Of a stretch of 64,000 nt of DNA, positions 12,475-39,348 are shown one piece after another. The stretch comes from a virus: positions 1 to 64,000 of IMG/VR virus record IMGVR_UViG_3300008266_000006. One strand, written 5' to 3'. The position numbers and the translations under genes are program-made. Each line of letters starts with the position of its first letter. Within the stretch, counting starts at the first letter, position 1. Under the pieces are notes generated by a model. That model was given only the letters and a program-made list of their open reading frames with translations, was not told the DNA's origin and ran no database searches.

Positions 12475-14154
12475 ATGACTATAACATTACGCCCCTACCA
12501 ACAAGAGGCGTTAGATTCTATTGTTGCCAGTGAAAACAATGGTGTTTCTAAACAACTTGTAGTTTTACCAACTGGAGCTGGTAAGACTATTTTATTTTCA
12601 CATCTACCTTTAATCAGAAAAAATACTTTGCCCATGTTAGTTCTAGCTCATCGAGGAGAACTACTTGATCAAGCCCGTAATAAAATTATTGCTAGCAATC
12701 CTCATTTAACCGTAGAGATAGAGCAAGCAGAAAGACGAGCTGGTAAGGTAGACGTAGTTGTAGCATCTGTTGCTACACTAGGTCGAAACAATACTCCACG
12801 TATTTTAGAATATCCTCAAGATTATTTTAAATCAATTGTTATTGATGAAGCTCACCATGCTGCTGCAACGACATACCGTCGTATTGTAGATTATTTCAAT
12901 TCACCATTTTTATTAGGTGTTACTGCAACGCCTCAGCGTTCAGATAACACTAGATTAACAGATGTCTTTGAAGAGATTGTTTATTATAAATCTATTCAAG
13001 ATTTAATTGAAGATGGATATTTATGTCCACTTATAGGATACAGAGTTAAAACTAATACTGACATTACGGAAGTAGAGATTCAAAATGGAGACTATAACCA
13101 GTCGCAACTGGAAGATCACATTAATACTCCTGAGCGTAACGCTTATATTGTTGCCAGTTATAATAATCTGGCAGCTTCTACGAAAGCCATTGTTTTCGCT
13201 GCAGGAGTCGCCCACGCAAAAGACTTGGCCACATCCTTTGCGCAAAACGGGACCTCTGTACGAGTAATCGTAGGCACAACCCCTGCTGAAGAAAGATCTC
13301 AAATACTCAGAGATTTTTCTTCAGGTGCCGTTAAAGTCTTAGTCAATGTTGGTGTCCTAACAGAAGGATTTGATGAACCTTCTTTAGAAACTATTATCAT
13401 TGCTAAGCCTACTCGTTCAACTCTTTTGTATACGCAAATAGTTGGTCGAGGTACCCGTTTATATGATGGTAAACCACATTGTACTATCATTGATATTTCA
13501 GACACAACTAAAGGTAAGAAGCCTATTGGCCTTCCATCTTTACTTGGTCTTCCACCTGACTTTGATTTACAAGGTAAGTCTCTTACTGAAGTAGCCAAAG
13601 AGTTTCAAGAACTTGAAACGTATTGCCCAGGTGAAGCAGTTCGTGTTCTTAATCCAGATGATATTCAACTTGCTTATGCAAGAATAAATCTGTTTATGCC
13701 ACCACCTCCAAACCCAATTGTTCAACAATATTCTAAACTTGTTTGGGCTGAGGTTGGCGAAAATAGTTTTCATCTTGGTTTAAATAACAATGAGGCTATG
13801 AGCATACACCAAGATGCTCTTGGTAGATGGTCAGTTGCTCTTCATGATAAACATTCTAAGACTGCTAAAGTGTTAGGCCATGTACTTGATCTCAGAGAAG
13901 CTTTTGTTAGATCAGATAGATGGATTCAAAATAATAGAGCACAATCTATGAACTTGATTGAATCTGATGCTCCTTGGAGAGCTGATTCTCCTACTGATTC
14001 ACAGAAGCGTGTTCTCAAGCGCATGGGCGTTCCACTCACAGCAGATCTTACTAAAGGTATGGCTTCTCAACTTATCTCAAGATATTATGAGAATAATCCT
14101 AAACCTAAATGGTTACAAAACAAAATTGATTATAATAAGAATAGGTATAGATAA
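12475..14154 (+). CDS. SF2 DEAH-box helicase (RadD/Irc3-like)
   Basis: LRPYQ, PTGAGKT, DEAH, TAT, LTEGFD, QIVGRGTR. Confidence 0.92.
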   Translation: MTITLRPYQQEALDSIVASENNGVSKQLVVLPTGAGKTILFSHLPLIRKNTLPMLVLAHRGELLDQARNKIIASNPHLTVEIEQAERRAGKVDVVVASVATLGRNNTPRILEYPQDYFKSIVIDEAHHAAATTYRRIVDYFNSPFLLGVTATPQRSDNTRLTDVFEEIVYYKSIQDLIEDGYLCPLIGYRVKTNTDITEVEIQNGDYNQSQLEDHINTPERNAYIVASYNNLAASTKAIVFAAGVAHAKDLATSFAQNGTSVRVIVGTTPAEERSQILRDFSSGAVKVLVNVGVLTEGFDEPSLETIIIAKPTRSTLLYTQIVGRGTRLYDGKPHCTIIDISDTTKGKKPIGLPSLLGLPPDFDLQGKSLTEVAKEFQELETYCPGEAVRVLNPDDIQLAYARINLFMPPPPNPIVQQYSKLVWAEVGENSFHLGLNNNEAMSIHQDALGRWSVALHDKHSKTAKVLGHVLDLREAFVRSDRWIQNNRAQSMNLIESDAPWRADSPTDSQKRVLKRMGVPLTADLTKGMASQLISRYYENNPKPKWLQNKIDYNKNRYR

Positions 14155-14156
14155 AC

Positions 14157-14615
14157 ATGTCTAGATTCTATTCTCGTTTTGTTGTTGATCCATATTTGGA
14201 TTACAATACAATTGATTATGTTGATGTATCTAAAAATGATATTTCTTTTTTAGCTGTAGCTACTAAACTTGCTGCAACATCTGACAACAGATTTCGTGTT
14301 GGAGCACTAGTCGTAAAATCTGGAAGAGTGTTTGGTGGTAGTGCTAATATTACTAAACGCTCACCAAGTACTCCTCCAAATAGATTTTCAACTCATGCAG
14401 AGATTGCAGCTTTAAAGGTAGCTTCAGAAACAGAAGACTCTACTTTGTATATTTCAAGGTTAAGTTCTTTAAACCTTCCAGCTTTAGCTAAACCATGCTC
14501 ATGGTGTATCCAGAAGATACTTGAAGCTGGAGTCAAACGTGTTGTCTATACTGTTGATAAAAACACATCTAAATATTTTTATACTTCCACTTTAAATTGG
14601 AGCAATTATGCGTAA
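14157..14615 (+). CDS. cytidine/dCMP deaminase-family protein
   Basis: THAE and PCSWC zinc motifs. Confidence 0.85.
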   Translation: MSRFYSRFVVDPYLDYNTIDYVDVSKNDISFLAVATKLAATSDNRFRVGALVVKSGRVFGGSANITKRSPSTPPNRFSTHAEIAALKVASETEDSTLYISRLSSLNLPALAKPCSWCIQKILEAGVKRVVYTVDKNTSKYFYTSTLNWSNYA

Positions 14616-16068
14616 AAAATACCTAGCTATTATTGCGGTTAGTGCAATAGTTTTTTCTTTAATTTCGTACAAAGAAGTTTCTGCACGGTCTTCAACTTAC
14701 AATGATGTGGCTGCTGCTACAACTCCAGTAAAGTTTAGATTTACTTTAGATAAATCAGTCCCATACATTGGTGCAACAAAAGCCTATAACTTAGGCTATA
14801 CTGGCGCAGATCAGTATGTTGTTGTTATTGATACCGGTATAGAAACTGCACATCCATTTTTGCAAGGCAAGGTTGCTTTAGAAGCTTGCTTTGCTGATAA
14901 ATGCCCTAATGGTCAGACTTCAATGATTGGTCCAGGAGCTGCTCGTCCAGTCCACTGGCACGGCACTCACGTAGCAGGTATTGTTGCTGGAAGCAATTCT
15001 AACATGCGCGGAGTTGCTCCAGGTGCTAAGATCATTGCTGTAAACGTATTTGATGTTTACGGTGCTGCTTATGACGACGATATTATCAAGGCTTTAAATT
15101 GGGTTAATACAATATCTTCCCAATATAATATTGTTGCTGTCAACATGTCACTTGGTTCCAGTCAAGTTTTTAGAACTACATGTGATGGATATATTCCAGC
15201 AATGACAGATGCGATTAAAGCTCTTCGTGATAAAAAGATTGCTACAGTAATTTCATCAGGCAACTCATATGCTGTAGGCATGAGTGCTCCTGCATGCATT
15301 ACTTATTCTGTTTCTGTTGCAGCTACAATGTCTACCTCTGATACAGTAACAAACTTTTCAAATATCAGTGAATATACTACTCTTGCTGCTCCTGGAAATA
15401 TGATTAACTCATCATCTTTGATGGGTGCATATCGATATGCTTCAGGCACATCTATGGCTTCACCTCATGTGGCTGGAGCATTTGCAGTCTATACTTCAAA
15501 GTATGGAAAACAAGATGTTTCTAAAGTTATTTCTGATTTTGCAATGAACGCTCCAAAAGCTGTTGACTCTTATAGCGGCATTAAAATACCACGCTTATAT
15601 TTTGATGCTTTATTTAGTGACGGTACTCCAGTTGTTACTACAACAACTACTGTCCCTGTTGTCACTACCACTACACTTCCTGTAACTACTACAACAGTTG
15701 TTTCTCCAACTACAACTGTTCCAGTGACTACTACTGTTCCTAGTCCTACTACTACTTTACCAAAACCTCCTTTTCACCCTACAATGACAAAACCATTACT
15801 TTTGGATATGTATGGTGGCTTTAAAACTTTTGTCTATGTAAAATATCGAGTCCCCGTTGTTGGAAGAAACATTGTTTCTTATTACAATTTATATTGTGAT
15901 GGAAACAATAAATATGTAATTCCACATCAAACTCGATGGACAATTGATACCTATAAATTGGAAGTTCCAGCTTCTCAAATTAACTACTGTTACTTGACAG
16001 CTGTTTCAATTTATGGACAAGAATCATCTCCATCATCCTTTTCCTATATCTATCCTAGAAACAAGTGA
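14608..16068 (+). CDS. secreted S8 subtilisin-like protease with Thr/Pro linker
   Basis: signal peptide; IDTG, HGTHVAG, GTSMASPHVAG catalytic triad. Confidence 0.93.
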   Translation: MRKKYLAIIAVSAIVFSLISYKEVSARSSTYNDVAAATTPVKFRFTLDKSVPYIGATKAYNLGYTGADQYVVVIDTGIETAHPFLQGKVALEACFADKCPNGQTSMIGPGAARPVHWHGTHVAGIVAGSNSNMRGVAPGAKIIAVNVFDVYGAAYDDDIIKALNWVNTISSQYNIVAVNMSLGSSQVFRTTCDGYIPAMTDAIKALRDKKIATVISSGNSYAVGMSAPACITYSVSVAATMSTSDTVTNFSNISEYTTLAAPGNMINSSSLMGAYRYASGTSMASPHVAGAFAVYTSKYGKQDVSKVISDFAMNAPKAVDSYSGIKIPRLYFDALFSDGTPVVTTTTTVPVVTTTTLPVTTTTVVSPTTTVPVTTTVPSPTTTLPKPPFHPTMTKPLLLDMYGGFKTFVYVKYRVPVVGRNIVSYYNLYCDGNNKYVIPHQTRWTIDTYKLEVPASQINYCYLTAVSIYGQESSPSSFSYIYPRNK

Positions 16069-22409: not shown

Positions 22410-23045
22410 ATGTATAACGATTTTATGTCTAGCAATGACGATGACTTATTTAGTTCTGAGTCTTCTTCAAAAGAGTCACCTAAAAGTTCAGATGAGATTT
22501 TTAAAGACATTGAGAAAATGCTCAAAGATAAGCCATCTGATTTCTTTAATGAAGTAGAGATAACTTCTAGAATTGTAAACTCTTTTAATGATTCTGCGAA
22601 TCGATATATTTTTGCAACTGATTCTTATAATCGTTCTATATTTGACGAGCTAAACTCTATTACAAGTGGCAAATTCTCTTATCGGGTTTATGCCGATATT
22701 TTAGAAGAGTCACTTGCAAGAAGATTTATTGTATTTGATTTTCTTAAAATTTTAGCTAGCGCAAAAGATGAAAGACTATTAAAGTTTTTCACTCAAAAAA
22801 TGAAACTTAATATTGATTCTCGTTTTGTCAATACTTATGTGACATCTTTAATTGAAATGCTAAATTTTGCTATTGATTACAATATAGAAATTTATATTAA
22901 AGTATGTCAAAAAATTGACAGAACTCCACTGCAACCTATTATTGATAGAGATATTGATAACGTTGATTTAAATCTTTTAGATTCAGATCAATATATTAAT
23001 AAGTATTTTTCTGTTATTCGCACTGAGATAGGATTTGACTTTTAA
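22410..23045 (+). CDS. hypothetical protein
   Basis: GGAG RBS, 211 aa. Confidence 0.7.
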   Translation: MYNDFMSSNDDDLFSSESSSKESPKSSDEIFKDIEKMLKDKPSDFFNEVEITSRIVNSFNDSANRYIFATDSYNRSIFDELNSITSGKFSYRVYADILEESLARRFIVFDFLKILASAKDERLLKFFTQKMKLNIDSRFVNTYVTSLIEMLNFAIDYNIEIYIKVCQKIDRTPLQPIIDRDIDNVDLNLLDSDQYINKYFSVIRTEIGFDF

Positions 23046-23046
23046 T

Positions 23047-23433
23047 ATGGCTTTAACTTCTAACAGTAATTTTTCTGATCATCAAACTCGAGTTATATTG
23101 CATATGTCTGATTGGCGTTCTGAGGCTAAATGTAAGTCTGTAGATACCCAATCTTTTTATGATACAGAAGAATCTGTTATGAAGAAGCAGGCTGCCAAGT
23201 ATTGCCCTAGCTGTCCTGTACAAAATCAGTGTTTGTATACTGCTATAGTCATTCATGAAAAGCATGGTGTCTGGGGTGGCTTAACCCCTAAGCAAAGAAA
23301 ATCTTTAATAAGAAATTTAAAACTTATTGCTCGTTCCAAAGGACTAGACTTAGACATTTGGAACAAAGATGTTGATAATCTTATTTTTCAACATACGAAC
23401 CTTCAAACGGCTTATAATATAATTAATAATTAG
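23047..23433 (+). CDS. whiB: WhiB-family transcription factor
   Basis: W-x4-C...CPSCPVQNQC...GVWGG. Confidence 0.9.
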   Translation: MALTSNSNFSDHQTRVILHMSDWRSEAKCKSVDTQSFYDTEESVMKKQAAKYCPSCPVQNQCLYTAIVIHEKHGVWGGLTPKQRKSLIRNLKLIARSKGLDLDIWNKDVDNLIFQHTNLQTAYNIINN

Positions 23434-23444
23434 ATTGGAGTTTT

Positions 23445-23840
23445 ATGACTTCTTATCCAGAGAAGGTCCCCCAATCTGCGCCAATTAAAAACTTTTATTT
23501 CAGTTTAGACGCAGCTGCCGACTCTAAAACAGAGATTAAAAATCAAATTTCTATTTTAGAAGAACGGATAGAAAAAATCATTCAACATTTTACTGTTGAT
23601 GATATGCCAATTATCAGATTCATTTTAAATATGACTCATGATAAAGAGATTATAAAAGGTCTTTCTAAAGCCTTAGATAGAGCTTCAGATCTTGTTGAGC
23701 ATCTCGATAATCTTTCTTCAAAGTTGAAGGTCATCGAGCATGCTGAATCAGACCCTTCTTGGTTTGCTTATACTTTTGGTGATTTTTCTAGTTCTATTGA
23801 TAATGATTTAAAAGATATATTTGGAGATAACAATGGCTGA
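23445..23840 (+). CDS. hypothetical coiled-coil protein
   Basis: GGAG RBS. Confidence 0.7.
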   Translation: MTSYPEKVPQSAPIKNFYFSLDAAADSKTEIKNQISILEERIEKIIQHFTVDDMPIIRFILNMTHDKEIIKGLSKALDRASDLVEHLDNLSSKLKVIEHAESDPSWFAYTFGDFSSSIDNDLKDIFGDNNG

Positions 23841-25734
23841 TAGCTTTAATTACGCACTTACACTTAATGATAATGGTGTATATGTATTGCGTTCCACAGT
23901 AGAAAGTTTTAATTTACAGCAAGTTACTGATAAAGATATCATTTCTTTTTATCAAAACTTTTCTAACTCAGCTGTATTTGATACTGGTTTATTACCTTTA
24001 GATGGAACTGGTGTTTTGGCTATTCGTGCTGCAGGTAACCACATGCAGGTTACCGTTCAGCACAAGCCAGGTCTTTACTATATCAATTGGGGAGAATATG
24101 AAGGCCAATCCGGTGCTAAAACTTATACTTTAGCTCAGCCTTACCGAATTATTATAGGCGACTTTGTTGATGGTCAACTTCTTGGCGCTAGAATGTTTTA
24201 TTCTCCTTATCCAATTACCCATCCAGACATGCCTTTATACCATGTTAATCTTCCAAACATCAACTGCAAAGGTTACCGTGGCAATGGTGTAGGTTGGATA
24301 TGTTTATATCTAAAAGAAGATTGGTCAAATCTTCCTTTAAATGAAAAGATCTCTCGTTTTATTGAACGCTGTTCTGGTGTCGAAACATACAACGACGCTA
24401 ATATGAGTGAAACAGATGGTCCTCGTTTTTACCAACAAAAACTTGAAGATAATATGGATGAAGATCTTTCTTATCTTTGGAACCCTCAGAAATGGCAAGA
24501 CAAAAGTCTTAATGAGGGCTTTGATTGGACCTTAAATGAAAATCTTTGGATTCCGGTTAAAGTTCAATCTATTGACAATCAAAACAATCACGATGATAAC
24601 GGCATTCCTCTTACTTTATCAGGTGCTTTACTTGGTAATTATAGAGCTTATTATACTGACGATAATATCCCTAAGTTTTATAATGTTGTAGCTCGTGAAG
24701 ATCTTAATCTTTCAAATGAACAAGTTGCTAAGTTTGTTAAGAAGTCTTTTTCACAATCTGCTGCAATCTATAGCTATAATAATCTTTCCAATCCTTTGTC
24801 TTCTACTTTAAAATCTAGAGAAGATAAATCAAATTCTTCACCACAATTACCTTTTGAAGAAGATGAAAGTGAAGATGAATTATTTACTTGTGTTTCATGC
24901 GACAGTACCTATACTGAATCTGATATAACATATGATGTTAATGGTGAACCAGTATGTTCTAGTTGCATAACTGAACATTATGTTTATTTAGAGAGCTTAC
25001 AAGAATATTATCATACTAGTGATGATAATCTTTATTATGATGAAGCTAAATCAACCTATTATCACACGTCTTATGACACAGTAAAGATTTGTGATAATTG
25101 TGATACTGTTTACTGCGAGCAGGGTAATTCAGTAGCAGTTCCTGTTTATGATTTTGCAACTCCTAAAGGTGAGGTATTTCAATACTGCAACAGTTGTATT
25201 GAATCTGTTGCTAAAGATAACAATCTTACCGTTGTTTCTTGCAGTTGTGGTAGCACTAAACATATTTCTGAGTTTATAGAATATACCCTTTCAACCTTGT
25301 ACATTAAGAAGTTTCTTCTTCCTAAACTTATTTGGTCTACAAATTCTAATCCACAAACAGATGAACCAAGCCCTGTAAGTCATGAAGTTGCTTTTGAATA
25401 TACAGATACTACACTTATATATTGCCCTAAATGTGTAGATAAATCCACCATGCTTCACCAGACTTGTCCATGTGGATCTTTGGTTGATTCTTCTGATATT
25501 CTAAAATGCTCTTTAACACCAGTCACTGTTGGTGATTCTCAATATCAAGTTGCAGCTGCTTGTGCATCTTGCATTGGCAATATCAAGCCTACTGATAATG
25601 GATACCATATTGGAGAATATATTCCTAAAGTTTCTTATCAGCTAGATAAAGCTATTGAATCTGGAGTTATTTTAAATTCTCCTTATGTCGTTCCAGATTC
25701 TTTGGTTGACAAAGAAAACAATGAACCATTTTAA
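23833..25734 (+). CDS. prokaryotic E2 (family D / PRTRC-B-like) domain with Cys-rich C-terminus
   Basis: LYHVNLPNINC...GWICL motif; many CxxC pairs after about aa 350; operon with JAB, E1 and Ubl genes. Confidence 0.65.
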   Translation: MADSFNYALTLNDNGVYVLRSTVESFNLQQVTDKDIISFYQNFSNSAVFDTGLLPLDGTGVLAIRAAGNHMQVTVQHKPGLYYINWGEYEGQSGAKTYTLAQPYRIIIGDFVDGQLLGARMFYSPYPITHPDMPLYHVNLPNINCKGYRGNGVGWICLYLKEDWSNLPLNEKISRFIERCSGVETYNDANMSETDGPRFYQQKLEDNMDEDLSYLWNPQKWQDKSLNEGFDWTLNENLWIPVKVQSIDNQNNHDDNGIPLTLSGALLGNYRAYYTDDNIPKFYNVVAREDLNLSNEQVAKFVKKSFSQSAAIYSYNNLSNPLSSTLKSREDKSNSSPQLPFEEDESEDELFTCVSCDSTYTESDITYDVNGEPVCSSCITEHYVYLESLQEYYHTSDDNLYYDEAKSTYYHTSYDTVKICDNCDTVYCEQGNSVAVPVYDFATPKGEVFQYCNSCIESVAKDNNLTVVSCSCGSTKHISEFIEYTLSTLYIKKFLLPKLIWSTNSNPQTDEPSPVSHEVAFEYTDTTLIYCPKCVDKSTMLHQTCPCGSLVDSSDILKCSLTPVTVGDSQYQVAAACASCIGNIKPTDNGYHIGEYIPKVSYQLDKAIESGVILNSPYVVPDSLVDKENNEPF

Positions 25735-25773
25735 TTATACACAAAAACTAAACCTATTGGATATTGGAGTTTT

Positions 25774-27444
25774 ATGACTGACACAGTAGAAGTACAACCA
25801 CTAAAACTAGAAGATTTAAACTATTTTTGGACTACATCAGGTCTGCCATGTTTTTACGCAAACCGTGATAACATTGAAGATATAGTTGAATCTTTGGGTT
25901 TTAATATATATTATCTTATTTGCAATATTGCAGAAGATAAAAAAGTAACAACTTCCACCACAACTTACACAAATGGAGTTGCCACAACAAGTCCACAGTA
26001 TACAACAGAACTTACAACTGGTATTGTTAAAGTTGTTAATAATATTGTTGGTCGTTCTGTTTCAGCTGTTTCTGATGACATTTCTGAATTGACTCCAATT
26101 CGTGAATCTGGTGCATACCACATGCCAGCAATTCCAAGAATTATAGTTGATAAACTTGATGAGTTTTTCAGACTTGTTGATGCACAACACGGCACAGAAT
26201 CAATTGTATTACTAACTTTTGATCCATCAAAAGATGATTCATCTGGCTGGGGAGTTTTAGTTCCAGACCAGACAAATACTGCTGTGCATTGCAACTACAA
26301 TCCAGATTCTATTGTAGAAGAGAAGCCTGATAATGTTTTGATTGTCGGCTCAGTGCATTCACACCCTGGAATGGCTGCTTATGCATCAGGTACTGATCAT
26401 TCTGATCAAGCAGACTTTGATGGCTTACACATCACTTATGGCTGGCAAAAGACCGTAAATAATGGTGCTACTCAATATCATATTGAAATGCAGATGAGTG
26501 GAACTAGCTGGACATTAAAACCAGAGGATGTTTTTGAAACTTTTAGTATCAAAAAGGAACCGGATCCTGATGTCGTTGAATGGTCTGGTAAAGTAAAAAA
26601 AGCACTCCCCCCGCTGCAGTCGCAGGCGGGGGTTTATACAACAAGCCCAGCTACTCCGCCAGCACCTTATCGTCCAGCCCCTCAAACTACTCCTACTACG
26701 GGTCTTGGTACTCATAAGCAATCTAAGCCAGATATTAAAACAAATGGTAATTACATCTTAGTTGCGGAAATAGATCCAGCAGTAGAAAGTTTGCCATGCC
26801 CAAATTGTGATCATATCAATACTGCATATGATATGCAAGTTGGCTATTGCAAAGTTTGTGATATTCCTTTTGTTTCTGCTGGTGACACTATTGATGAAAT
26901 AATGATTCAAATTAAATGGTATTTGAATTGTCGTTACATCTCTGAAGATACAATTGTTTATCTTTGGTCAAAAGATCCAAGTATCAAAGAAGAAATAGTT
27001 ATGAATGTCGGTACTGTTAAATTCTTAAATGACACAGATACCGAATTTATATATACATCTAAAGAATCTGATAATAAAACTGTTTTAGATTATTCTGAAG
27101 ATAGTTTTTATGATTCAGATCTTGAGTCATTTGATCCAGATTTAACAGTTTGCTGTGGAACAAATATACTAAATGGGAATTGCACTTGTGAACTTCCAGT
27201 TTTATATGAGGACACTGTAGACTTTGAAGATGCTCACGATGGAAAAGATATCTATGATTGGACATCAAAATGTCTTGAATGTAAGTTTTATTCTGGCCCT
27301 GGTTGCAGAGACTATGTTGATGCAGTCATAGATTATGCCACTAATCGTAACTTACTTAAAACAACCATCAAAGAGTGTGATTCTTTTCAAAATTACAGAG
27401 ACTTTGATTCATATGCGGAAACAACTTACAGAGGATATTTATGA
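25774..27444 (+). CDS. JAB/MPN metalloprotease with Cys-rich C-terminus
   Basis: GTES...HSHPGMAAYASGTD JAMM motif. Confidence 0.85.
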   Translation: MTDTVEVQPLKLEDLNYFWTTSGLPCFYANRDNIEDIVESLGFNIYYLICNIAEDKKVTTSTTTYTNGVATTSPQYTTELTTGIVKVVNNIVGRSVSAVSDDISELTPIRESGAYHMPAIPRIIVDKLDEFFRLVDAQHGTESIVLLTFDPSKDDSSGWGVLVPDQTNTAVHCNYNPDSIVEEKPDNVLIVGSVHSHPGMAAYASGTDHSDQADFDGLHITYGWQKTVNNGATQYHIEMQMSGTSWTLKPEDVFETFSIKKEPDPDVVEWSGKVKKALPPLQSQAGVYTTSPATPPAPYRPAPQTTPTTGLGTHKQSKPDIKTNGNYILVAEIDPAVESLPCPNCDHINTAYDMQVGYCKVCDIPFVSAGDTIDEIMIQIKWYLNCRYISEDTIVYLWSKDPSIKEEIVMNVGTVKFLNDTDTEFIYTSKESDNKTVLDYSEDSFYDSDLESFDPDLTVCCGTNILNGNCTCELPVLYEDTVDFEDAHDGKDIYDWTSKCLECKFYSGPGCRDYVDAVIDYATNRNLLKTTIKECDSFQNYRDFDSYAETTYRGYL

Positions 27445-28196
27445 GCAACAACCCAAAAAGAGTTATAGTTGTAGGAGCAGGCGGCATAGGCACTTGGCTT
27501 TGTGCTGGCTTAGTCAGAATGCTTGAGTGGAAGTTTCCTGGTTCTGCACTTATCATCGTCGACGGTGATAATTATGAAGCCAAAAACTTAGAACGCCAAG
27601 ACTTTACGCAAATTGGCAATAAAGCTTCAGTTAAAGCTTTAGAACTTTCTAAGCAATTTTCAGAGACAAATATATTTCCATTGCCGAAATGGGTTGTTTC
27701 TGATAACTTTGAACAAGCTTCTGATGACAATAGTAATAAAATTAAAGCTTCAGATCTTATATCTGAAAACGATATAGTTATTGCCGTTGTTGATAACTTT
27801 GCTGCTAGAAAAGTATTGTTTGATGCAGCAAGTAAAATTGACAATGTTGATGTTTTTACTGGCGGCAATGATGACAATCTTTTCGGCTCTGTGTATCATT
27901 ATCAAAGACGAAATGGACACGATGTTACTGCTCATCCTGCAACAACACATGACGAGTATCTAAACCCACCAGATAGAAATCCTGGTGAATTGTCTTGTCA
28001 GGAAAGAGCAGAACTTGAAGGTGGCACTCAAGTATTAGCCACTAATATGGCAGTAGCTGCCTTCATTCTTGGTCGGATACAAAAAACCATTGTTTCCGAC
28101 CAAAGTCCTGAAGAAACTGAGATCTACTTTGATCTTGGTTTAGGAATGTCTCAGCCATACAACCGTATGGTTGAACAACAATTAATAACCACATAA
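27441..28196 (+). CDS. ThiF/E1-like activating enzyme
   Basis: VGAGGIG, DGD-x-YEAKNLERQ, VDNFAAR, candidate catalytic LSCQE. Confidence 0.9.
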   Translation: MSNNPKRVIVVGAGGIGTWLCAGLVRMLEWKFPGSALIIVDGDNYEAKNLERQDFTQIGNKASVKALELSKQFSETNIFPLPKWVVSDNFEQASDDNSNKIKASDLISENDIVIAVVDNFAARKVLFDAASKIDNVDVFTGGNDDNLFGSVYHYQRRNGHDVTAHPATTHDEYLNPPDRNPGELSCQERAELEGGTQVLATNMAVAAFILGRIQKTIVSDQSPEETEIYFDLGLGMSQPYNRMVEQQLITT

Positions 28197-28213
28197 ACTT
28201 GGAGGATAATCCT

Positions 28214-28468
28214 ATGGAAAACCAAGCACAATCATCACAGCAGAACATACCTGCTGGTCAGCCAGCAAACGTCCGTTTCGGCGTTTACAGCCAGCCAGCA
28301 CCAGTTTCTGGAAAGACAGTTGGCGAAGTTCGTCAACAGTTTTCTAAAATCTGGGGTATTTCAAACGATGCAGTTGCATACAAGGGTAAAGACAAGCTTG
28401 ATGAGAATTATGTCATCCAGCCTGGTGACAACCTTGAATTTCACCGCCGTTCAGGCGAAAAGGGCTGA
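28214..28468 (+). CDS. ubiquitin-like beta-grasp protein
   Basis: GKTVGEVR...YVIQPGDNLEFHRRSGEKG with C-terminal Gly; GGAGG RBS. Confidence 0.8.
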   Translation: MENQAQSSQQNIPAGQPANVRFGVYSQPAPVSGKTVGEVRQQFSKIWGISNDAVAYKGKDKLDENYVIQPGDNLEFHRRSGEKG

Positions 28469-28484
28469 TTAGCCCTTTAAGATC

Positions 28485-28528
28485 GTGGGGGAGAGTGCTT
28501 TGATCGGGCACTTTCCCCCACATTTTTT
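28485..28528 (+). terminator. intrinsic terminator after Ubl gene
   Basis: GTGGGGGAGAGTGC/GCACTTTCCCCCAC followed by a T-run. Confidence 0.8.
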
Positions 28529-28564
28529 CTAAAGGCTATACTTTATAATTATATTGGAGATATC

Positions 28565-30151
28565 ATGTTGTACCAACAAATGCAGTTGGGAGTTCCAGCT
28601 CTTTGGATCCAAACCAAAGATTTTATAAGAGTTTCTGAACTTGTATTAAAATTCAAGTCTAGAAACTATTACACAATCACAAACGGTGCCTTTTCATTAT
28701 ATGCTGACGGTAAATGGAAACCAATTCTAGTAAAACTTACAGATCCAAGTACTTCTGACACTATTGAAACAACAACTGATAATATTGCTGTCGCAATTGA
28801 TTATGTTGAAAATCAACCAAATAAATCATCTTCCACATTCATTATAAACTCTTTAGAAGACCCTAAGAAAACAGCTTCTGAAATATCTGGACTTATAAAC
28901 CATTTGTCTTCTATATATCGTTCTTCTTTTATGAGTGATGATATTTCCGCAATGCCATATCAAGTTATTATTCTTTCTCCACATGTATGTCCAGAAGAGT
29001 ATAGCTTTTTGTTTGTTAGCATTGAAGATACATATCCTTCATTTGAAGATCTCGTTGAAATTGTTACACATATGCATTCTTCAACTAATGGAGAAATTGT
29101 TGACATTACTAAAGCAAAAGAAATTGCGAAAGCAGGTTTGGGTTTAAATGAATTTTCTTTCATTAACTATTGTCTTTTGTCAGTTCTTAATACTGGCAAA
29201 GTTAATCCTGAGTATGTTTACAAATCTAAAATGGCTAATGTCAAAAAGAACGGCATCCTAGAGATTATTAAACCGAAAATTACATTTGATTCTATTGGTG
29301 GTCTTGATAATATCAAGCAAGTAATTGAACGCAATGTATTTTTCTGGCAAAACCCACAAGAAGCCGAACGTTATGGCATAACACCAATTAGAAGAATACT
29401 TACTGTGGGTGTTCCAGGTACTGGTAAGTCTGCAATTTGTGAGGCTACTGCCAACGCTTTAAATCTTGATCTTGCGAGAACTGGTGTTAGCCAAGTTATG
29501 AATTCTTTTGTTGGTCAATCAGAAGCAAACATGCGTGCAGTCTTTCAGCAAATTAAAGTAATGGCTCCACTTTGTGTATGGATTGACGAGTTTGGTCGTG
29601 ATCTTTCAGGTGGTGCTAGCTCTTCTCATGTAGATGGTGGCACCACAGATCGTGTTCACGGTGAATTCTTAACTGGCTTGCAAGAACTTCCAGATAATGT
29701 TTTCTTGATGTGTGCTGCAAATCAGCTTGATAATCTTCGTCCAGAAATGCTTCGTGCAGAGCGTTTCGACAAGATATTCTTTGTTGGATTGCCAGCTTTT
29801 GAAGAACGAATTTCTATTATTAAAATTTATCTTCCTGAAGGTGATTTTAATTATGAGATTATTGCTCGAGCTACAAAGTATTTTACTGGTGCAGAAATCA
29901 AATCTTTGATCAAGCATGTAAAATTTGATGTTGTGTCTACTTTCCGTAGACCAGTTACAACAGAGGATATTGTTTCTCGTGTTCCAACTATGAGAAATAT
30001 TCTTTGGAATAAAGATAAAGAAATGATTAAGAATTTGTATCGATTAGCTTATGACCAATGGGATTGGGCTTCTACTTTACAACTCAATGACATTGATGAT
30101 ATACTTGGTAATCGTGTACAAAACACTGATTCTTGGGAAGTTAAAATATAG
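28565..30151 (+). CDS. AAA+ ATPase (Ycf46/CDC48-like)
   Basis: IGGLDNIK, GVPGTGKS, WIDE, RAERFD. Confidence 0.9.
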   Translation: MLYQQMQLGVPALWIQTKDFIRVSELVLKFKSRNYYTITNGAFSLYADGKWKPILVKLTDPSTSDTIETTTDNIAVAIDYVENQPNKSSSTFIINSLEDPKKTASEISGLINHLSSIYRSSFMSDDISAMPYQVIILSPHVCPEEYSFLFVSIEDTYPSFEDLVEIVTHMHSSTNGEIVDITKAKEIAKAGLGLNEFSFINYCLLSVLNTGKVNPEYVYKSKMANVKKNGILEIIKPKITFDSIGGLDNIKQVIERNVFFWQNPQEAERYGITPIRRILTVGVPGTGKSAICEATANALNLDLARTGVSQVMNSFVGQSEANMRAVFQQIKVMAPLCVWIDEFGRDLSGGASSSHVDGGTTDRVHGEFLTGLQELPDNVFLMCAANQLDNLRPEMLRAERFDKIFFVGLPAFEERISIIKIYLPEGDFNYEIIARATKYFTGAEIKSLIKHVKFDVVSTFRRPVTTEDIVSRVPTMRNILWNKDKEMIKNLYRLAYDQWDWASTLQLNDIDDILGNRVQNTDSWEVKI

Positions 30152-30162
30152 AAAGGACAACT

Positions 30163-30783
30163 ATGTCTTCATTTGATAATTCTGTCGAAGAGTTTTTAGA
30201 GAACTTAACACAGGATCCATCTCAGACTGAAAAGAAAGAATATGATGCTCCACTTTATAAGAAGTGGTTTCGTTCTAAGACGCAAAGCGGCTTTCTTTCA
30301 ATTCGTCCATGGTTTGTTGGTATGAAGTTTAATATTGATATCGGCAAGACATCAGCAGATGGAAAGTTGGAAAGTAGCACTTCTTGTTTTGTTGATGCAG
30401 TTGACTTTGCTGCCTATTTAAAATCTGTAGTTAATGGCACTGCTTCTATCAACTACCCAGCAAATGAACGCACAGGAACAACAACTCCTGAGGGCTTTGT
30501 TTCTTATGGTGGAGCTATTATTAATAATCAACCAGTTAGTAGAATATTAAAGATTCAATACTGGACTTCTAACGATGCTTTTGACACTACTGCTTTTATT
30601 TGGAAGTCTGGTCATTTTAAAGCTCGTAAGTCTGATAGCGGTGCTTTTATTCCAGATATGAAATCACCTATTTCAGTTGATTCTATCAAAGTTTCTCGTC
30701 AAGAAATGGTTGGCATTTCTTATTTACTTGATCTTTGCTTGCAATCACATGTTACAAACAATGTAGATTGGTATGATGTATGA
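30163..30783 (+). CDS. hypothetical protein
   Basis: AAAGGA RBS, 206 aa. Confidence 0.7.
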   Translation: MSSFDNSVEEFLENLTQDPSQTEKKEYDAPLYKKWFRSKTQSGFLSIRPWFVGMKFNIDIGKTSADGKLESSTSCFVDAVDFAAYLKSVVNGTASINYPANERTGTTTPEGFVSYGGAIINNQPVSRILKIQYWTSNDAFDTTAFIWKSGHFKARKSDSGAFIPDMKSPISVDSIKVSRQEMVGISYLLDLCLQSHVTNNVDWYDV

Positions 30784-31169
30784 GCGAAGATATAAGTTCT
30801 ATTTTAGGTCCCAAAGATGAAGTAAGTCTTCTTCGTGAACACGTTGAAGAACTTATACTAGCTTTAGCAAATAAATTTGAATCTCGTTTGCAAGACTCTG
30901 AAACTCATATAGAAATGCTAGAAAAGCAACTTGCTCAGATGATCGTCGGTTATGGCGAACAAGCAGTATTTATGGAAGCTTTAATTGCTCAAATAAACTT
31001 TGCTTCTCCTGAAGCTCAAAAAGCGTTTACTGCAAACGTTTCTGAGAATCGTAGAAAAATGTTTCAAGCTATGAAAGAAGGCGCACCTGGAATCCTGGGC
31101 CCAGAAAACGAAGACCTTGCCTCAGCCATTACAAACTTGGCTGATCAAAAGTTATCTGACTCCAACTAA
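30780..31169 (+). CDS. coiled-coil hypothetical protein
   Basis: ATGA overlap with the upstream gene. Confidence 0.7.
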   Translation: MSEDISSILGPKDEVSLLREHVEELILALANKFESRLQDSETHIEMLEKQLAQMIVGYGEQAVFMEALIAQINFASPEAQKAFTANVSENRRKMFQAMKEGAPGILGPENEDLASAITNLADQKLSDSN

Positions 31170-32036: not shown

Positions 32037-32645
32037 ATGAAACCTATAAATATATTTGATATTGATAATTATATTCAAGATTATCTACCTGTAGTGGAGT
32101 ATATAAATACCAAACAAGGCGCAATGCCTTACTGCTCTCACTTTACAAGTTCTAAGAATCCTATAGAGTATGCTTCTTCAGATTATGCTTTTGCTAATCT
32201 CCCAATTAAAAACAGTTGCAGTTCTTCTGACAGGCTTGCTCAAGTTTCTATGAATAGGATATGGACATGCCCAGATGCTAATGTACAAGTTTCATGCAGT
32301 TATTATCGTGCTGATGTATATAAAATATCTACTACATCTTTATTTGATGCAGTAGGTTCTGAAATTGTTTATGATTTAATTAAACTTAGGAATCAACACG
32401 GTTATACATATTTTATATACAATAAAACTCGCAAGAATATAACTCAGATTTATACAATTTCTTATGAAAATGATTTAATTGACGACAAGGCTATTGAAAT
32501 TTTTAAACAGCATTTGTCTGAGTCGTATGATTCTGTTTCTTCCTTTATTCCTGATTATGCTTTTAATGTAATTGAAAAAGATTTTTCAGTTCCACAAAAT
32601 CAAAAAGAGAATTCATTTCTTCTATCTTTAGTTTCTACTGAATAG
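32037..32645 (+). CDS. hypothetical protein
   Basis: 202-aa ORF in operon. Confidence 0.65.
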   Translation: MKPINIFDIDNYIQDYLPVVEYINTKQGAMPYCSHFTSSKNPIEYASSDYAFANLPIKNSCSSSDRLAQVSMNRIWTCPDANVQVSCSYYRADVYKISTTSLFDAVGSEIVYDLIKLRNQHGYTYFIYNKTRKNITQIYTISYENDLIDDKAIEIFKQHLSESYDSVSSFIPDYAFNVIEKDFSVPQNQKENSFLLSLVSTE

Positions 32646-32653
32646 GTATTTTT

Positions 32654-33994
32654 ATGGAAAATATAAGCCATATTAGTAAGTCAATGCACACGCTTATGGT
32701 TGATCCTTTTATGTTCAATTTAAATTGTTTTACTAAAACTTTATCTAGTAATTCAATAAATGATAACACTTACACTTACAATTTTCAGCTATATCCTGCT
32801 GACAAAACTTTTCTTCATAAATCCTATTCTTCTTTTGAGTATTCAAGTTCTTTAAACTCAAATAATGTTGATCTGCTTCCGATGGCTGTTAGGTATGCTG
32901 ATATTAAAAATAAAATTTATGTTATAGAACGACCACCTTTTCAAACTGATATAGATTTTTATCCTAATAAAAAAGTAAACGCTCGATTAGCAAATCATAT
33001 ACCAAATAAAAAAATTTGGATACCTTGGACTGTTTTTGTTGTTTCTTTAGGAGATTCTCCTGAAGAACTTAACGCAATGCTTTTCTTTAATGATAAGCCT
33101 TTAGAGTCATTTGATGACCGTGTTATTAAAGGTTATACTCCAAATTTGTTTGGTGACGCTAGAGTTTGTTTCGGTAATTCTTTGTTTACATTTAAACAAC
33201 GTATTGATCAAGGCGATATAAAATATAATATTTCAAACGTATATAATTATTTATTTAATGATTATTTTACCCAGTGGAATCCTGATATATCTCCAAACTA
33301 TTACTCTCTTTTTTATAATTATTTTAATCAAAACAAATTTATTGAAAGAGTTTTATCTTTAAAAAAATATCCTAAAGGAATTGAAGATTTTTCTTCATGG
33401 AATGCTCGTTCGGCTTCTACACCATGGATATATGTACTTTTCTTACTCAGTACAATGACCTATGAAGAAACAATGAGTCTTGTTTCTTATTTTAAGACTA
33501 CAGTTTTTCAAACTCACCATGTTAGGTATGTTGCTCTTTCTGAAATCATAACCCTTCGTATGCAAAAAAATTGTACTTTTAATTTTCAAGACAACAATTT
33601 TGATTTTAGTGAACGAGATTTCATTGGTCATTATTCTAACTATATGAGCGCTTTTAAGCATGCTATCCAACCATCCCATCGAAGTAAGAAAATTGACGTA
33701 CCTGTTATCGTTGCTTTTAAAGACTTTCCTGAAGATACAAACAAGTCAATTATAATCTCAGAAGATACTTACGCATACATTTATTCTTTTATTTTTGATA
33801 AGATAAATGAGGCTCTAAATGAATTGTCAAACACCCCAACATTAGAGCACGTTATCTTCAATAGCTCTGATGATTTTTATCATTTTTATTCTCGTTTTAC
33901 TAATTTTTTCTCCTATGGTTCTATTCACATAACCATTAATTATAATGATTATATGAATTTTATAGCTCAACCTTTAGAAGGTGTTTATGTCTAA
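32654..33994 (+). CDS. second E2 family D-like protein
   Basis: IWIPWTVF...YTPNLFGDARVCFG. Confidence 0.55.
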   Translation: MENISHISKSMHTLMVDPFMFNLNCFTKTLSSNSINDNTYTYNFQLYPADKTFLHKSYSSFEYSSSLNSNNVDLLPMAVRYADIKNKIYVIERPPFQTDIDFYPNKKVNARLANHIPNKKIWIPWTVFVVSLGDSPEELNAMLFFNDKPLESFDDRVIKGYTPNLFGDARVCFGNSLFTFKQRIDQGDIKYNISNVYNYLFNDYFTQWNPDISPNYYSLFYNYFNQNKFIERVLSLKKYPKGIEDFSSWNARSASTPWIYVLFLLSTMTYEETMSLVSYFKTTVFQTHHVRYVALSEIITLRMQKNCTFNFQDNNFDFSERDFIGHYSNYMSAFKHAIQPSHRSKKIDVPVIVAFKDFPEDTNKSIIISEDTYAYIYSFIFDKINEALNELSNTPTLEHVIFNSSDDFYHFYSRFTNFFSYGSIHITINYNDYMNFIAQPLEGVYV

Positions 33995-35348
33995 AATAAT
34001 TCAAACTATTTTGTCTAAGAATTATATATCTGATTTGTCTCCCAAACTTGCAGAAGGATTAGGAAAGAAAGTAAAATCTAGAAATCCTCTTATTAATCCT
34101 CTTATTAATTTAGGAGAAAAAAAAGCTTATTTTGAACATTACACAAGCCATATTGAACCAAGTGCTGTTCAAAGCAGTTTTTCTACTTATGAAGATTATA
34201 TTATTGATTCAAATTATTATTTAAGTATGGCTACAAATAATTCTGCTTATTACGCAGATAAGAATTTTCATAACATTCAAGACCATTGGAAAAAGTTATT
34301 TAAAATTCCTTTTGATATTAATGTTGGTGAAGATAAAGACGAACAAATTTCTAATTCAATAATTTTTCCTGGTGTTCGTCACATTGAAAGCAACATGATC
34401 ATATTTGAAATGCCGCCAGCTTATCGTCATGTTTCTTACCAGCATGCTTATAGGGATAATGCTAGCGGCACATCTTACAGGAAATATTATATTCCTGTTC
34501 CTTGGCAAGTGTATGTAGCTACATTTTCAAATGATATGAAATTAGTTGATGTTCAAATGTATTTTTCTAAAACATCTCTTTATTCGATGGATCAAAAACT
34601 ATATTCTCCACCGCTTTTAAACTTTTATGGCAGTGGTCTTTTATGTCGTCCATTCTTTGAATCTTTAGAAGATGTTGAAAAATATCCAAAAACCATATCA
34701 GGAATTATTTCTTCTGCTTTTGATTGGGTTTGGAACACTGGTTTTAATTGGGATATAACAGAGCCAATTTCACAGTACTTACATTCAAGATTTTATGAAT
34801 CAATGCAGCCTTTTGTTGATCGTAAAACTTATGAATCTTTAGTTCCATATTTTCACGGCTCTGCTCCACACACAAATGCTCAAGTTCATAGCGTTGATGC
34901 TATGTTTACACTTTGGCAAAATGTACCATTAGAAAATGTTCTTGATCTTGACTGGATTGCATTTTGTATATATTCTGATTTCTATTATCAATCAATAGAG
35001 CTTTATTTGAGTAATCATTTTTCTCAAGATTTTAACCAATATATTGAAGATAATAATATTGATTTAATTTCTGAAGATGAAGTAGAAGATGAAGAACAAG
35101 CCGAGTCTAGAGAGCACGATATTCAGTCAATACTTCAGTCTACTCAATTCCATTCATTTATGGCTCCTAAGTTAAATAATTTTAATTCTACTTTAAAACA
35201 CGCTTATGATATTGCTGATCGTAGACTTCATTCTTATAGGTTAAAACCAACAAATAATTATTCTTTTTTTACTAAAAAATCTTATCAAACTGACGCTTTT
35301 ACTAAACACCTTGACGCTAAAATATTAGAGATTACTTCTTCAGTTTGA
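33987..35348 (+). CDS. third E2 family D-like protein
   Basis: YIPVPWQVY...LYSPPLLNFYGSGLLCRP. Confidence 0.55.
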   Translation: MSKIIQTILSKNYISDLSPKLAEGLGKKVKSRNPLINPLINLGEKKAYFEHYTSHIEPSAVQSSFSTYEDYIIDSNYYLSMATNNSAYYADKNFHNIQDHWKKLFKIPFDINVGEDKDEQISNSIIFPGVRHIESNMIIFEMPPAYRHVSYQHAYRDNASGTSYRKYYIPVPWQVYVATFSNDMKLVDVQMYFSKTSLYSMDQKLYSPPLLNFYGSGLLCRPFFESLEDVEKYPKTISGIISSAFDWVWNTGFNWDITEPISQYLHSRFYESMQPFVDRKTYESLVPYFHGSAPHTNAQVHSVDAMFTLWQNVPLENVLDLDWIAFCIYSDFYYQSIELYLSNHFSQDFNQYIEDNNIDLISEDEVEDEEQAESREHDIQSILQSTQFHSFMAPKLNNFNSTLKHAYDIADRRLHSYRLKPTNNYSFFTKKSYQTDAFTKHLDAKILEITSSV

Positions 35349-35947: not shown

Positions 35948-36385
35948 ATGATAGACCCAAAGAACACAGTATCACTTACTGCAGGTGTAATTGCAGATCC
36001 AGAACTTGTTGCTAATGGCAACATCGCTAAATTGCGTATAGCTGTTGATTACGCTGGAAGCGAAAAAGGTTCTGGTATGAGCTCTGGTTACTTTGATGTT
36101 GTTTATTATCTCAAAGATGGCAATGATTTTGCAACCAAGAACGCTGCATTTATATCTAAGCAGATTAATGAAGCTAAGATGAAGAAAGGCGCACAGATTC
36201 AAATCCTTGGCAGACTTGTTCAAGAGCGTTGGCAGCAAGATAACCAGAATCGTTCTAAGGTAGTTATCGTTGCTGAAGCGATTACTTACGCTGGTTCTGC
36301 TTATCAGAAGAATTCTAACTCATCTTCAGATGCTTCTGCTCCAAAGGCAGCTACATCATCAAATTCAGTTCCAGATGAATTCTGA
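35948..36385 (+). CDS. ssb: single-stranded DNA-binding protein
   Basis: OB-fold pattern G-x-IADPEL, KGAQIQILGRL-x-QERW; tail VPDEF. Confidence 0.88.
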   Translation: MIDPKNTVSLTAGVIADPELVANGNIAKLRIAVDYAGSEKGSGMSSGYFDVVYYLKDGNDFATKNAAFISKQINEAKMKKGAQIQILGRLVQERWQQDNQNRSKVVIVAEAITYAGSAYQKNSNSSSDASAPKAATSSNSVPDEF

Positions 36386-38739: not shown

Positions 38740-39348
38740 ATGACTACGATAGTTGCTATTCAAGGGGACGGTTTTGCCCTTATTTGTTCTGATTCTCGTA
38801 TATCAGACATGGATGGTGATGGCTATGCTTCTCAGGTCAGCACTTTGAGAGAAGGCACTTCTAAGGTTGCTTCTAACGGAAAATACCTTCTTGGTGCTGC
38901 TGGAGATCTTAGAGCTATAAACTTACTGCATCATGCTTTTGTTCCTCCTCCAGCTCCTGCTGGAATAAAAGGAAAGAAGTTAGATCAGTTCTTTACTGTT
39001 AAGTTTATTCCGGCATTAAGAGAATGCTTTGAAGCACATGGCTATGCCACGCCTGATAAAGATGAAAAACGTCATATGGCAGAACATGAATCAATTGTTA
39101 TAGCTTCTATATCTGGCCAAATTTATATAGTTGACGGTGATTACTCTTGGCTTTCAGATACTTCTGGTGTCTATGCCCTTGGTAGTGGGTCTTCTTATGC
39201 CCTCGGTGCTCTTACTGCTTTGCTTCCTAAAGCTCCAATAACAGTCCAAGTAGCTAAGAAGATTGCCCTTAAAGCTATGAGCATTGCCGCTAGATTTGAT
39301 TCTTATACAGGAGCCCCATTTCATACTTTTGTACAAGAGCAGAAATAG
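38740..39348 (+). CDS. proteasome-beta / HslV-like Ntn protease
   Basis: M-TTIVAI (Thr1), SDSR, K-V, GAAGD, ALGSGS, D-x-YTG. Confidence 0.85.
   Translation: MTTIVAIQGDGFALICSDSRISDMDGDGYASQVSTLREGTSKVASNGKYLLGAAGDLRAINLLHHAFVPPPAPAGIKGKKLDQFFTVKFIPALRECFEAHGYATPDKDEKRHMAEHESIVIASISGQIYIVDGDYSWLSDTSGVYALGSGSSYALGALTALLPKAPITVQVAKKIALKAMSIAARFDSYTGAPFHTFVQEQK

Follow-up and report, generated by a model that had tools for sequence, protein, structure and literature searches.

A 64,000-nucleotide stretch of viral DNA (hereafter the window), corresponding to positions 1-64,000 of an IMG/VR virus record (IMGVR_UViG_3300008266_000006; 171,197 bp, estimated to be 81% complete), carries a cassette of genes for an E2-like protein, a JAB/JAMM metallopeptidase, an E1-like adenylating enzyme, a ubiquitin-like protein (Ubl) and an AAA+ ATPase. 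We consider it fairly likely that this cassette encodes a phage system for Ubl conjugation and deconjugation, and that it is a core module of a clade of freshwater phages with genomes of about 200 kb. This reading is built on gene identities, conserved catalytic residues, predicted folds and synteny; the transfer steps we infer from the chemistry of the families. The cassette region has a GC content of 32-37%, and the genes and features of the block are the following:

23035-23433, plus strand: whiB-like regulator, directly upstream of the block (Pfam Whib, E = 2.1e-18)
23445-23840, plus strand: g131, 131 aa, no family above threshold; its 3' end overlaps the start of the E2-like gene
23833-25734, plus strand: E2-like protein, 633 aa, with a conserved N-domain, a variable Cys-rich middle and an acidic tail
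25774-27444, plus strand: JAB/JAMM metallopeptidase, 556 aa (Prok-JAB), with a Cys-rich C-terminal half
27441-28196, plus strand: E1-like adenylating enzyme, 251 aa (Pfam ThiF); its start overlaps the JAB stop
28214-28468, plus strand: Ubl, 84 aa, predicted beta-grasp fold, ending EFHRRSGEKG-stop
28485-28530, plus strand: GC-rich hairpin (28485-28521) and T-run, terminator-like, between the Ubl and AAA+ genes
28565-30151, plus strand: AAA+ ATPase, 528 aa (Pfam AAA), classical clade
30163-30783, plus strand: g206, 206 aa, conserved, ending NN.DWY[DE]x
30780-31169, plus strand: g129, 129 aa, conserved; its start overlaps the g206 stop
32654-33994, plus strand: par2, E2_D-like paralog, 446 aa, with an invariant Cys172
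33981-35348, plus strand: par3, second E2_D-like paralog, 455 aa, with Prok-E2_D as its best family, below threshold

The initial annotation of this region had described the five cassette genes as contiguous and as belonging to a phage, downstream of whiB. Our analysis bears this out: the genes follow one another on the plus strand at the coordinates first given, the whiB-like gene lies where it was placed, and the source is a virus record, with terminal repeats in its complete relatives. The E2-like gene begins, as its homologs do, with the ATG at 23833, and protein P0006, of 633 aa, is 100% identical to its product. The conserved block is wider than first marked, extending to g131 upstream and to g206, g129, par2 and par3 (32654-35348) downstream. 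Overlaps join g131 to the E2-like gene, JAB to E1, and g206 to g129.

Conservation of the gene order

The order g131, E2-like, JAB, E1, Ubl, AAA+, g206, g129, par2, par3 recurs in 47 IMG/VR loci, and the arrangement is thus not due to chance. The same order is present on five contigs of metagenome-assembled genomes (MAGs) assigned to disparate taxa, probably phage DNA that was binned in error. Several of the carriers are complete, terminally repeated genomes of 203-211 kb. Because the order recurs across loci that include complete genomes, the cassette is a core module of the clade and not an accessory island. Gene g131, with a conserved DPSW..FGDF close to its C-terminus, is immediately upstream of the E2-like gene in 46 of the 47 loci; g129 follows g206 in 41, and a whiB relative lies upstream in many, though not all. 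No family was found for g129.

In most loci, sequence identity is highest in the block for E1 (70-84%), the most conserved of all, and the Ubl (60-78%). The E2-like and JAB proteins evolve faster (40-50% full-length identity), mainly in their Cys-rich tails. These tails, which the initial annotation had proposed as possible substrate adaptors, are the most variable parts of both proteins, and in the L041 clade the JAB tail is a separate gene. A kinship between the tails of the two proteins was considered and rejected (E = 0.083).

A minimal, four-gene version occurs on two MAG contigs labelled Nomurabacteria and 'uncultured bacterium' (L056:5393-8854 and L058:5357-8744), with genes for a 489-aa E2_D-like protein, JAB, E1 and a ThiS-like Ubl. 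Since the operon on L058 adjoins aconitase genes, a cellular form of the cassette may exist. Separately, the record that contains locus L021 (G004, 267,766 bp, described as 'linear') has the genes for an HslV-like protease and a single-stranded DNA-binding protein (SSB) twice, about 215-219 kb apart (positions 32093 and 251439); the duplicate copies suggest a concatemeric assembly of a genome of about 215-219 kb.

The proposed tag and conjugation enzymes

The E1-like protein matches Pfam ThiF (PF00899) with 55.6 bits, against a gathering cut-off of 28.1 (E = 5.7e-15). Its G12xGG15xG17 motif (G12, G14, G15, G17) and residues D41, R52, D118 and C186 are invariant in all 32 relatives compared, as is S185-C186-Q187, which contains the SC motif originally noticed. 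Its architecture is a single ThiF domain, with neither zinc CxxC pairs nor a rhodanese domain.

The Ubl matches no family in Pfam or NCBIfam. Its AlphaFold2 model (pLDDT 80) predicts the beta-grasp order bb-a-bb-b followed by a floppy tail, and each of the best 50 Foldseek matches of this model in the PDB is a ubiquitin (prokaryotic ones included), ISG15, SUMO or NEDD8 (probability 1.00, TM 0.5-0.65). The GEKG motif is invariant in 15 aligned relatives, being final in 13 of them and followed by two residues (LA or NI) in the other two. The first description of this gene, as a beta-grasp protein ending in Gly, therefore agrees with the model and with the relatives, apart from these two short extensions.

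The match of the metallopeptidase to Prok-JAB (PF14464) covers residues 129-224 and passes narrowly (25.6 bits for a cut-off of 25; E = 1.2e-5). The JAMM motif is complete, E142 ... H195-x-H197 ... S205-x-x-D208, and is conserved across 36 relatives. For the JAMM protease, E1 and AAA+ genes alike, the identities first proposed were confirmed by Pfam matches above cut-off and by conserved motifs. In a divergent sub-clade (L041:11494-13388, and also L040, L043 and L044) the JAB gene is split: the JAB part, of 409-423 aa, ends ...GKG, GKS, GKA or GKD, reminiscent of the GEKG end of the Ubl, and the Cys-rich C-terminal part is a gene of its own of 190 aa, ending NYEEF. The JAB tails are rich in Tyr and acidic residues and several end in Tyr-Tyr-Asp, -Glu or -Asn; the tail encoded in the window ends RGYL. 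These tails, as well as the NN.DWY[DE]x end of g206, may be docking tails. We rejected a docking motif of the GQYL type (mycobacterial proteasome-activator-like) as a conserved feature of the RGYL tail, as the tails of relatives are variable, and a penultimate Tyr is present in only about one third of the distinct JAB tails.

Three parts make up the E2-like protein: an N-domain of about 330 aa that carries the invariant Cys161, a variable middle containing CxxC pairs, and an acidic tail whose last residues are PF. Its N-terminal 330 residues define a tight family of 472 clusters at 90% identity and 203 at 50%, of which 182 fall below E = 1e-30. The AlphaFold2 model computed from an 80-sequence alignment has very high confidence (pLDDT 94, pTM 0.90). 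When it was aligned exhaustively to 48,161 representative chains with VIA-align, E2/UBC or ubiquitin E2 variant (UEV) proteins made up most of the top chains, among them E2S, Ubc9, UbcH10, Ube2K, Ubc13, Pex4, Ube2W, UbcH5, Cdc34 and a bacterial CBASS E2. These alignments span model residues 44-243 and cover 111-140 of about 150 residues, with Z of 3.2-4.3 and a root-mean-square deviation mostly of 4-7 A; VIA-align on the top 1000 chains from Foldseek gave the same picture (best Z 4.4). The best matches, with Z of 4.3-4.4, align 120-136 residues at a deviation of 5-6 A. Such values lie in the range where a common arrangement alone may be shared (the tool warns below Z 8), and their weight for a putative E2-like fold lies in a single family, E2/UBC, filling the match list.

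The order of elements in the model also fits the E2 topology: a helix (40-48), a beta-meander (64-128), a long loop and helices at 173-184, 200-208 and 222-232. The loop reads LYH141-V-N143-LPNINCKGYRGNGVGWIC161-LY and places C161 after the last strand (119-128) and before helix 173-184. All 80 of the 80 sequences, which span 30-65% identity, have this Cys, and at least 90% have H141 and N143; the H141-x-N143...C161 pattern recalls the HPN...Cys of E2s, although its spacer is longer. Profile comparisons provide a tentative chain toward known families. With hhalign, the 80-sequence E2-like profile matches the par2/par3 family (87%, E = 4e-6, 94 columns), and the latter matches the first gene of X-JAB-E1-ThiS operons (X being the 489-aa protein of L056; 94%, E = 1.5e-7). 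Direct comparison of the E2-like protein with par2 and par3 by BLASTP was not significant (E = 4.0 and 0.14), and a shallow profile reached only 13%. The par2/par3 family alignment has invariant P94-P95, P124-W125, N164 and C172. Prok-E2_D is matched by 2 of 24 members of the par2/par3 family, and by par3 itself with E = 0.036 (7.1e-4 in a one-genome search), that is, 14-16 bits for a cut-off of 25. Of the 30 ESM-Atlas clusters that a language model places nearest to the E2-like protein, 25 come from a set with Prok-E2_D as a common Pfam family; in two such clusters listed, 13-20% of members carry it.

The name 'E2-D-like' given in the initial annotation is thus partly supported, by indirect evidence: the structural matches (Z 4.3-4.4), the profile chain and the language-model neighbors, with no Pfam match. 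We regard the protein as a putative, very divergent E2_D-like enzyme on the grounds of sequence and model, and the E2 call as the weakest of the cassette; given the failed family-model test, we do not file it as a Prok-E2_D member. The family gave no tblastn match in 50,697 GenBank phage records, and no cellular member in a pattern-based scan of 185,579 species genomes, which reaches close relatives only. In addition, residues 1-51 (window 23833-23985), which form the first three strands and a helix, align over about 50-67 residues, with Z of 3-3.8, to nucleic-acid-binding folds of the PC4, Pur-alpha and Whirly types. A PC4/Pur-alpha-like reading of this segment is too weak to use; one family member matches Pfam PC4 with E = 0.042.

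The AAA+ gene, the acidic tails and the surrounding genes

The AAA+ protein matches Pfam AAA with E = 8.5e-24 (84.9 bits, cut-off 21.2) and phrog_8638 with E = 1.4e-62. It has a single AAA module after a poorly conserved N-region, and its nearest solved chains are D2 modules, from archaeal VAT and from Cdc48/p97 (E = 2.8e-54 to 1e-50). Walker A, Walker B, the arginines of the second region of homology and the pore-loop Gly are invariant, the pore-loop Phe is kept in at least 70%, and the conserved motifs read GVPGTGKS, WIDE, FVG and R..R..RFD. As these residues are conserved, the protein looks like a working polypeptide translocase. The gene is adjacent to the cassette in every main-clade locus and also in the divergent loci L052 and L053.

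Between the Ubl and AAA+ genes lies a 16-bp, GC-rich hairpin with a T-run, which is the strongest terminator-like site in the region 19.5-37.5 kb and is unique in the window. It is found at this junction in most relatives, with compensatory changes at 7 of 10 pairs, and transcription probably stops or is attenuated at 28485-28530. Just after the hairpin and T-run (28485-28564), the motif (T)ATAAAG[GC]C is conserved in relatives. It occurs once in the window, which is not above chance, and could serve the AAA+ block as a promoter element.

Next to the AAA+ gene, g206 shows 58-72% identity in most loci, on par with AAA+, and has no Pfam, PHROG or NCBIfam match. A language-model (Atlas) score of 0.84 for a Whirly-type single-stranded DNA binder is a lead only, the Pfam Whirly model finding nothing. 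The genes after AAA+ in the cultured phages RcKickapoo and Dylan have no similarity to g206.

Two genes farther downstream provide context for the tails and for a possible protease:

35948-36385, plus strand: phage OB-fold SSB (Pfam SSB above cut-off), ending ...VPDEF
38740-39348, plus strand: HslV/BPH-like N-terminal nucleophile (Ntn) protease with Thr right after Met (Pfam Proteasome, E = 1.7e-7)

Bacterial SSBs carry an acidic tip, D-D-[DE]-x-P-F (e.g., DDDIPF, DDEPPF), that recruits replication and repair proteins. The E2-like protein of the window ends ...ENNEPF. Across its family, the C-terminal residue is Phe in 128 of 253 proteins and the last two are Pro-Phe in 65, and the residues at -3 to -5 are enriched for Asp or Glu; short natural forms without the Cys-rich middle keep the tail (e.g., DEEPF, DSDPF). 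The SSB gene, 600 bp after par3, encodes a protein ending VPDEF, with S[VI]P[DS][ES]F in 21 relatives, and in one relative the E2-like protein and the SSB both end TDF. This short motif suggests that the E2-like enzyme may dock where SSB tips dock. Because of the resemblance, replication or repair proteins are our best guess for its partners.

The cassette lies among replication-type genes (helicase, uracil-DNA glycosylase [UDG] and SSB). In four of four complete relatives the HslV-like gene lies downstream, at about 14-15 kb from the E2-like gene; in the window it is about 8.6 kb from the AAA+ gene. Its product matches HslV (E = 1.5e-5) and BPH (E = 6e-5) in the PDB, and no HslU was seen. Upstream of the cassette, on the same strand (window 12475-16068), are genes for a helicase of the SNF2/ResIII type (E = 6.8e-31) and an S8 protease of the subtilisin family (E = 1.9e-36).

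A proposed pathway, its alternatives and related systems

In the pathway that we propose, the 84-aa ubiquitin-fold protein would be made with a free C-terminal Gly, and in the few relatives with two additional residues these would be trimmed by the JAMM peptidase. The single-domain E1 would adenylate the Gly of the Ubl and then take the Ubl onto Cys186. From there the tag would be handed on to a Cys of an E2-like protein (Cys161, or the one in par2 or par3) and attached to target lysines, with the JAMM peptidase taking it off again. The zinc-ribbon-like variable middle of the E2-like protein and its acidic, Phe-ended tail would select partners, and the Cdc48/VAT-like AAA+ protein may unfold or extract the tagged proteins. 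A more specific version is a private tag-and-extract pathway at DNA, in which tail-guided E2-like proteins would mark replication and repair proteins for extraction by AAA+ and perhaps degradation by the HslV-like protease; we hold this version to be quite unlikely.

Several observations weigh against a conjugation system of this kind. Neither the E2-like protein nor 80 diverse members of its family match Prok-E2_D (PF14460) at E ≤ 1, or any other Pfam family above threshold; the protein has no useful NCBIfam, PADLOC or PHROG match and no sequence match in the PDB; Foldseek returns nothing for its model at E ≤ 0.001, and the low structural Z values count on the same side. The likeness of its tail to SSB tips is a short motif only, and the Ubl terminates in Lys-Gly, not Gly-Gly. 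As for the AAA+ gene, it is preceded by a conserved terminator-like hairpin, and in a sub-clade (L040, L041 and L044) about 2 kb of other genes stand between it and the Ubl. Moreover, the AAA+ protein has relatives (30-32% identity) in cultured phages of Rhodobacter, Rhizobium, Pseudomonas and Mycobacterium, which are absent from the results of the E1 search.

The strongest alternative concerns the AAA+ block: that AAA+, g206 and g129 form a separate phage module (e.g., for replication or assembly), adjacent to the four tagging genes through regional collinearity. We give this only slightly less than an even chance. The hairpin, the 2-kb insertion and the phages with AAA+ relatives all speak for it, and so do the minimal operons on L054, L056 and L058, which are without AAA+. 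However, AAA+ is adjacent in all main-clade loci and in L052 and L053, its nearest kin are the ubiquitin-dependent Cdc48/VAT unfoldases, and a leaky terminator could set the ratio of tag to motor. The initial annotation had included the ATPase in the same operon; an adjacent, Cdc48/VAT-like gene is indeed there, but the intervening hairpin and T-run and the relatives in phages with no E1 match leave its role in tagging a matter of inference. Considering the kinship with Cdc48/VAT, a link to tagging is attractive, at near even odds.

A second explanation accepts the tag but dispenses with a true E2: E1 would transfer the Ubl straight to targets, in the manner of archaeal SAMP/UbaA sampylation, and the E2-like protein and its paralogs would be non-catalytic, UEV/RWD-like adaptors or substrates that bind the Ubl. 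The weak E2 assignment (Z 4.3-4.4, no family-model match) is compatible with this, UEV proteins such as Tsg101 are among the structural matches, and inactive E2/RWD-like domains have been described in bacterial operons (PMC1779556). We nonetheless find it unlikely, given that Cys161 is invariant in 80 sequences and stands in a conserved VGWxCLY loop after His-x-Asn, where E2s have HPN...Cys, and that an invariant Cys is also kept in par2 and par3.

Alternatively, E1 and Ubl could make a thiocarboxylate (ThiS/MoaD/CysO-like) for biosynthesis or nucleic-acid thiolation, with the JAMM peptidase maturing the carrier as Mec+ does with CysO. The best named families of the E1 are of the ThiF/MoeB types, the Ubl of the related minimal operon L056 matches Pfam ThiS (E = 1.7e-6), and JAB-E1-ThiS trios are known (PMC1779556). 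On the other hand, the closest structural matches of the tag are ubiquitin-family modifiers and not ThiS/MoaD, the E1 has no rhodanese domain, and three Cys-bearing E2-like genes are retained alongside. The initial annotation had remarked that no thiamine or molybdopterin genes are nearby, and this extends to the whole 171-kb record, in which neither these nor sulfur-relay genes (rhodanese, cysteine desulfurase, PP-loop ATPase/thiolase, MoaE, ThiG) were found. Since host enzymes could supply sulfur, we lower this explanation to very unlikely rather than dismiss it. Finally, a counter-defence role, in which the kit would not remodel host or phage proteins but disturb host Ubl immunity (Bil, type II CBASS), perhaps by removing host conjugates or competing with them, is in our opinion improbable: bacterial Ubl systems do act against phages (PMC10097602, PMC10557695, PMC11601596) and the E1 weakly matches PADLOC CBASS E1-E2 models (best E = 2.2e-7), but JAB alone would be enough for stripping, and all complete relatives have the kit as a syntenic core module, not a variable accessory island, with replication-type genes (helicase, UDG, SSB) around it.

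The conjugation reading that we favor can be set against several known systems. Of the published descriptions, that of operon type 6d comes nearest (Iyer, Burroughs and Aravind 2006, PMC1779556, Table 1); this type was predicted to conjugate its Ubl to proteins and likewise has four separate genes, for a Ubl with a C-terminal Gly, a JAB, a single-domain E1-like protein and a Cys-bearing E2-like protein. Type 6d operons reside on bacterial chromosomes and mobile elements, whereas the present cassette is a phage core module that adds three E2-like paralogs, the Cys-rich tails and a neighboring AAA+ gene. Type 6d further includes a fast-evolving alpha-helical protein, for which g131 and g129 are candidates, and a JAB N-terminal domain with conserved Arg and Trp. 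The E2s also differ, as those of 6d have no classical upstream His and an absolutely conserved His after the Cys; in the phage proteins, His141 is upstream of the Cys in at least 90%, and the third residue after Cys161 is Leu in the window, against a consensus His.

The closest named family is PRTRC (ParB-Related, ThiF-Related Cassette; TIGR03735/TIGR03736; Prok-E2_D), for which the literature searched gave no tested function. PRTRC_ThiF is the second-best NCBIfam match of the E1 (E = 1.2e-8), and PRTRC_A is the only, weak one of the JAB (E = 0.0095). The resemblance to PRTRC that was first proposed is therefore correct as to the nearest named families, but the scores are far below the cut-offs (E1, 34.5 bits versus 144.75; JAB, 15.5 versus 101.8); the bridging operon of L056 reaches E = 1.1e-16 and 4e-12. 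At E ≤ 1, the E2-like protein, its paralogs and the Ubl have no NCBIfam match to PRTRC_B or PRTRC_C, the only matches being unrelated weak ones, and no ParB_N match was found in the 171-kb record, at its 81% completeness. In the Acinetobacter jumbo phage ME3, GenBank annotates a 'ThiF' gene some 3 kb from one for 'PRTRC system protein A', which indicates that distant versions of the cassette exist in cultured phages; the genes beside them are not significantly E2_D-like (E = 0.09 and 0.68). Distant ThiF genes are also present in the Bacillus phages WH1 and Edson.

Biochemistry is available for only three prokaryotic systems of the E1/E2/JAB kind, Bil, Bub and type II CBASS (PMC10557695, PMC11601596, PMC10097602), in which, as is proposed here, an E1, an E2 and a JAB-type peptidase act on a Ubl or Ubl-like C-terminus. 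They belong to the host side, and the present cassette to the phage side. The Bil E1 has tandem adenylation domains, in contrast to the one ThiF domain in the 251 aa of the phage E1, and the cassette matches no PADLOC Bil model. In type II CBASS, Cap2 is an E1-E2 fusion that acts on a cGAS-like enzyme, while the phage E1 and E2-like proteins are separate genes and no CD-NTase was seen among the scanned neighbor genes. Bub uses Tyr/Ser oxyesters, unlike the phage E1 with its invariant Cys. PADLOC returned only weak E1-E2 matches for the E1, and IetA matches for the AAA+ protein.

The combination of Ubl, E1, JAMM and a Cdc48/VAT-type AAA+ protein recalls archaeal SAMP/UbaA/JAMM with Cdc48/PAN and the eukaryotic ubiquitin-Cdc48/p97 system (PMC4895103), although the phage AAA+ protein is a single module with an unrelated N-region and, in place of 20S core genes, just the HslV/BPH-like gene is present. 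Phages themselves are known to encode a beta-grasp protein with a conserved Gly adjoining a JAB, namely TAPI (Ubl) and TAPK (JAB) in the tail clusters that lambdoid and T1-like phages carry (PMC1779556). Those lie in tail genes without E1 or E2, whereas the present cassette has the full activation machinery and lies among early/replication-type genes.

The cassette is thus a real, phage-borne version of the 6d/PRTRC-type cassettes, new on the phage side. The literature searched describes no bacteriophage that has E1, E2-like protein, Ubl and JAB all together; Asgard-archaeal viruses have been reported with E1-like genes only. Prokaryotic Ubl conjugation has so far been worked out on the cell side only, as an anti-phage defence (type II CBASS, Bil, Bub). 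That the set is a conserved core module of the clade suggests that the phage needs protein tagging for its own cycle. If the tag-and-extract pathway at DNA were true, it would be a bacterial-virus counterpart of the control of the eukaryotic replisome by ubiquitin and Cdc48. Should experiments bear out the chemistry, the E2-like family, with its about 200 clusters and no Pfam model, would be a new and very divergent branch of the E2 superfamily, its Cdc48-like neighbor would offer a simple model for the coupling of tagging and unfolding, and Ubl tagging would prove to be used by both sides of the conflict between phage and host.

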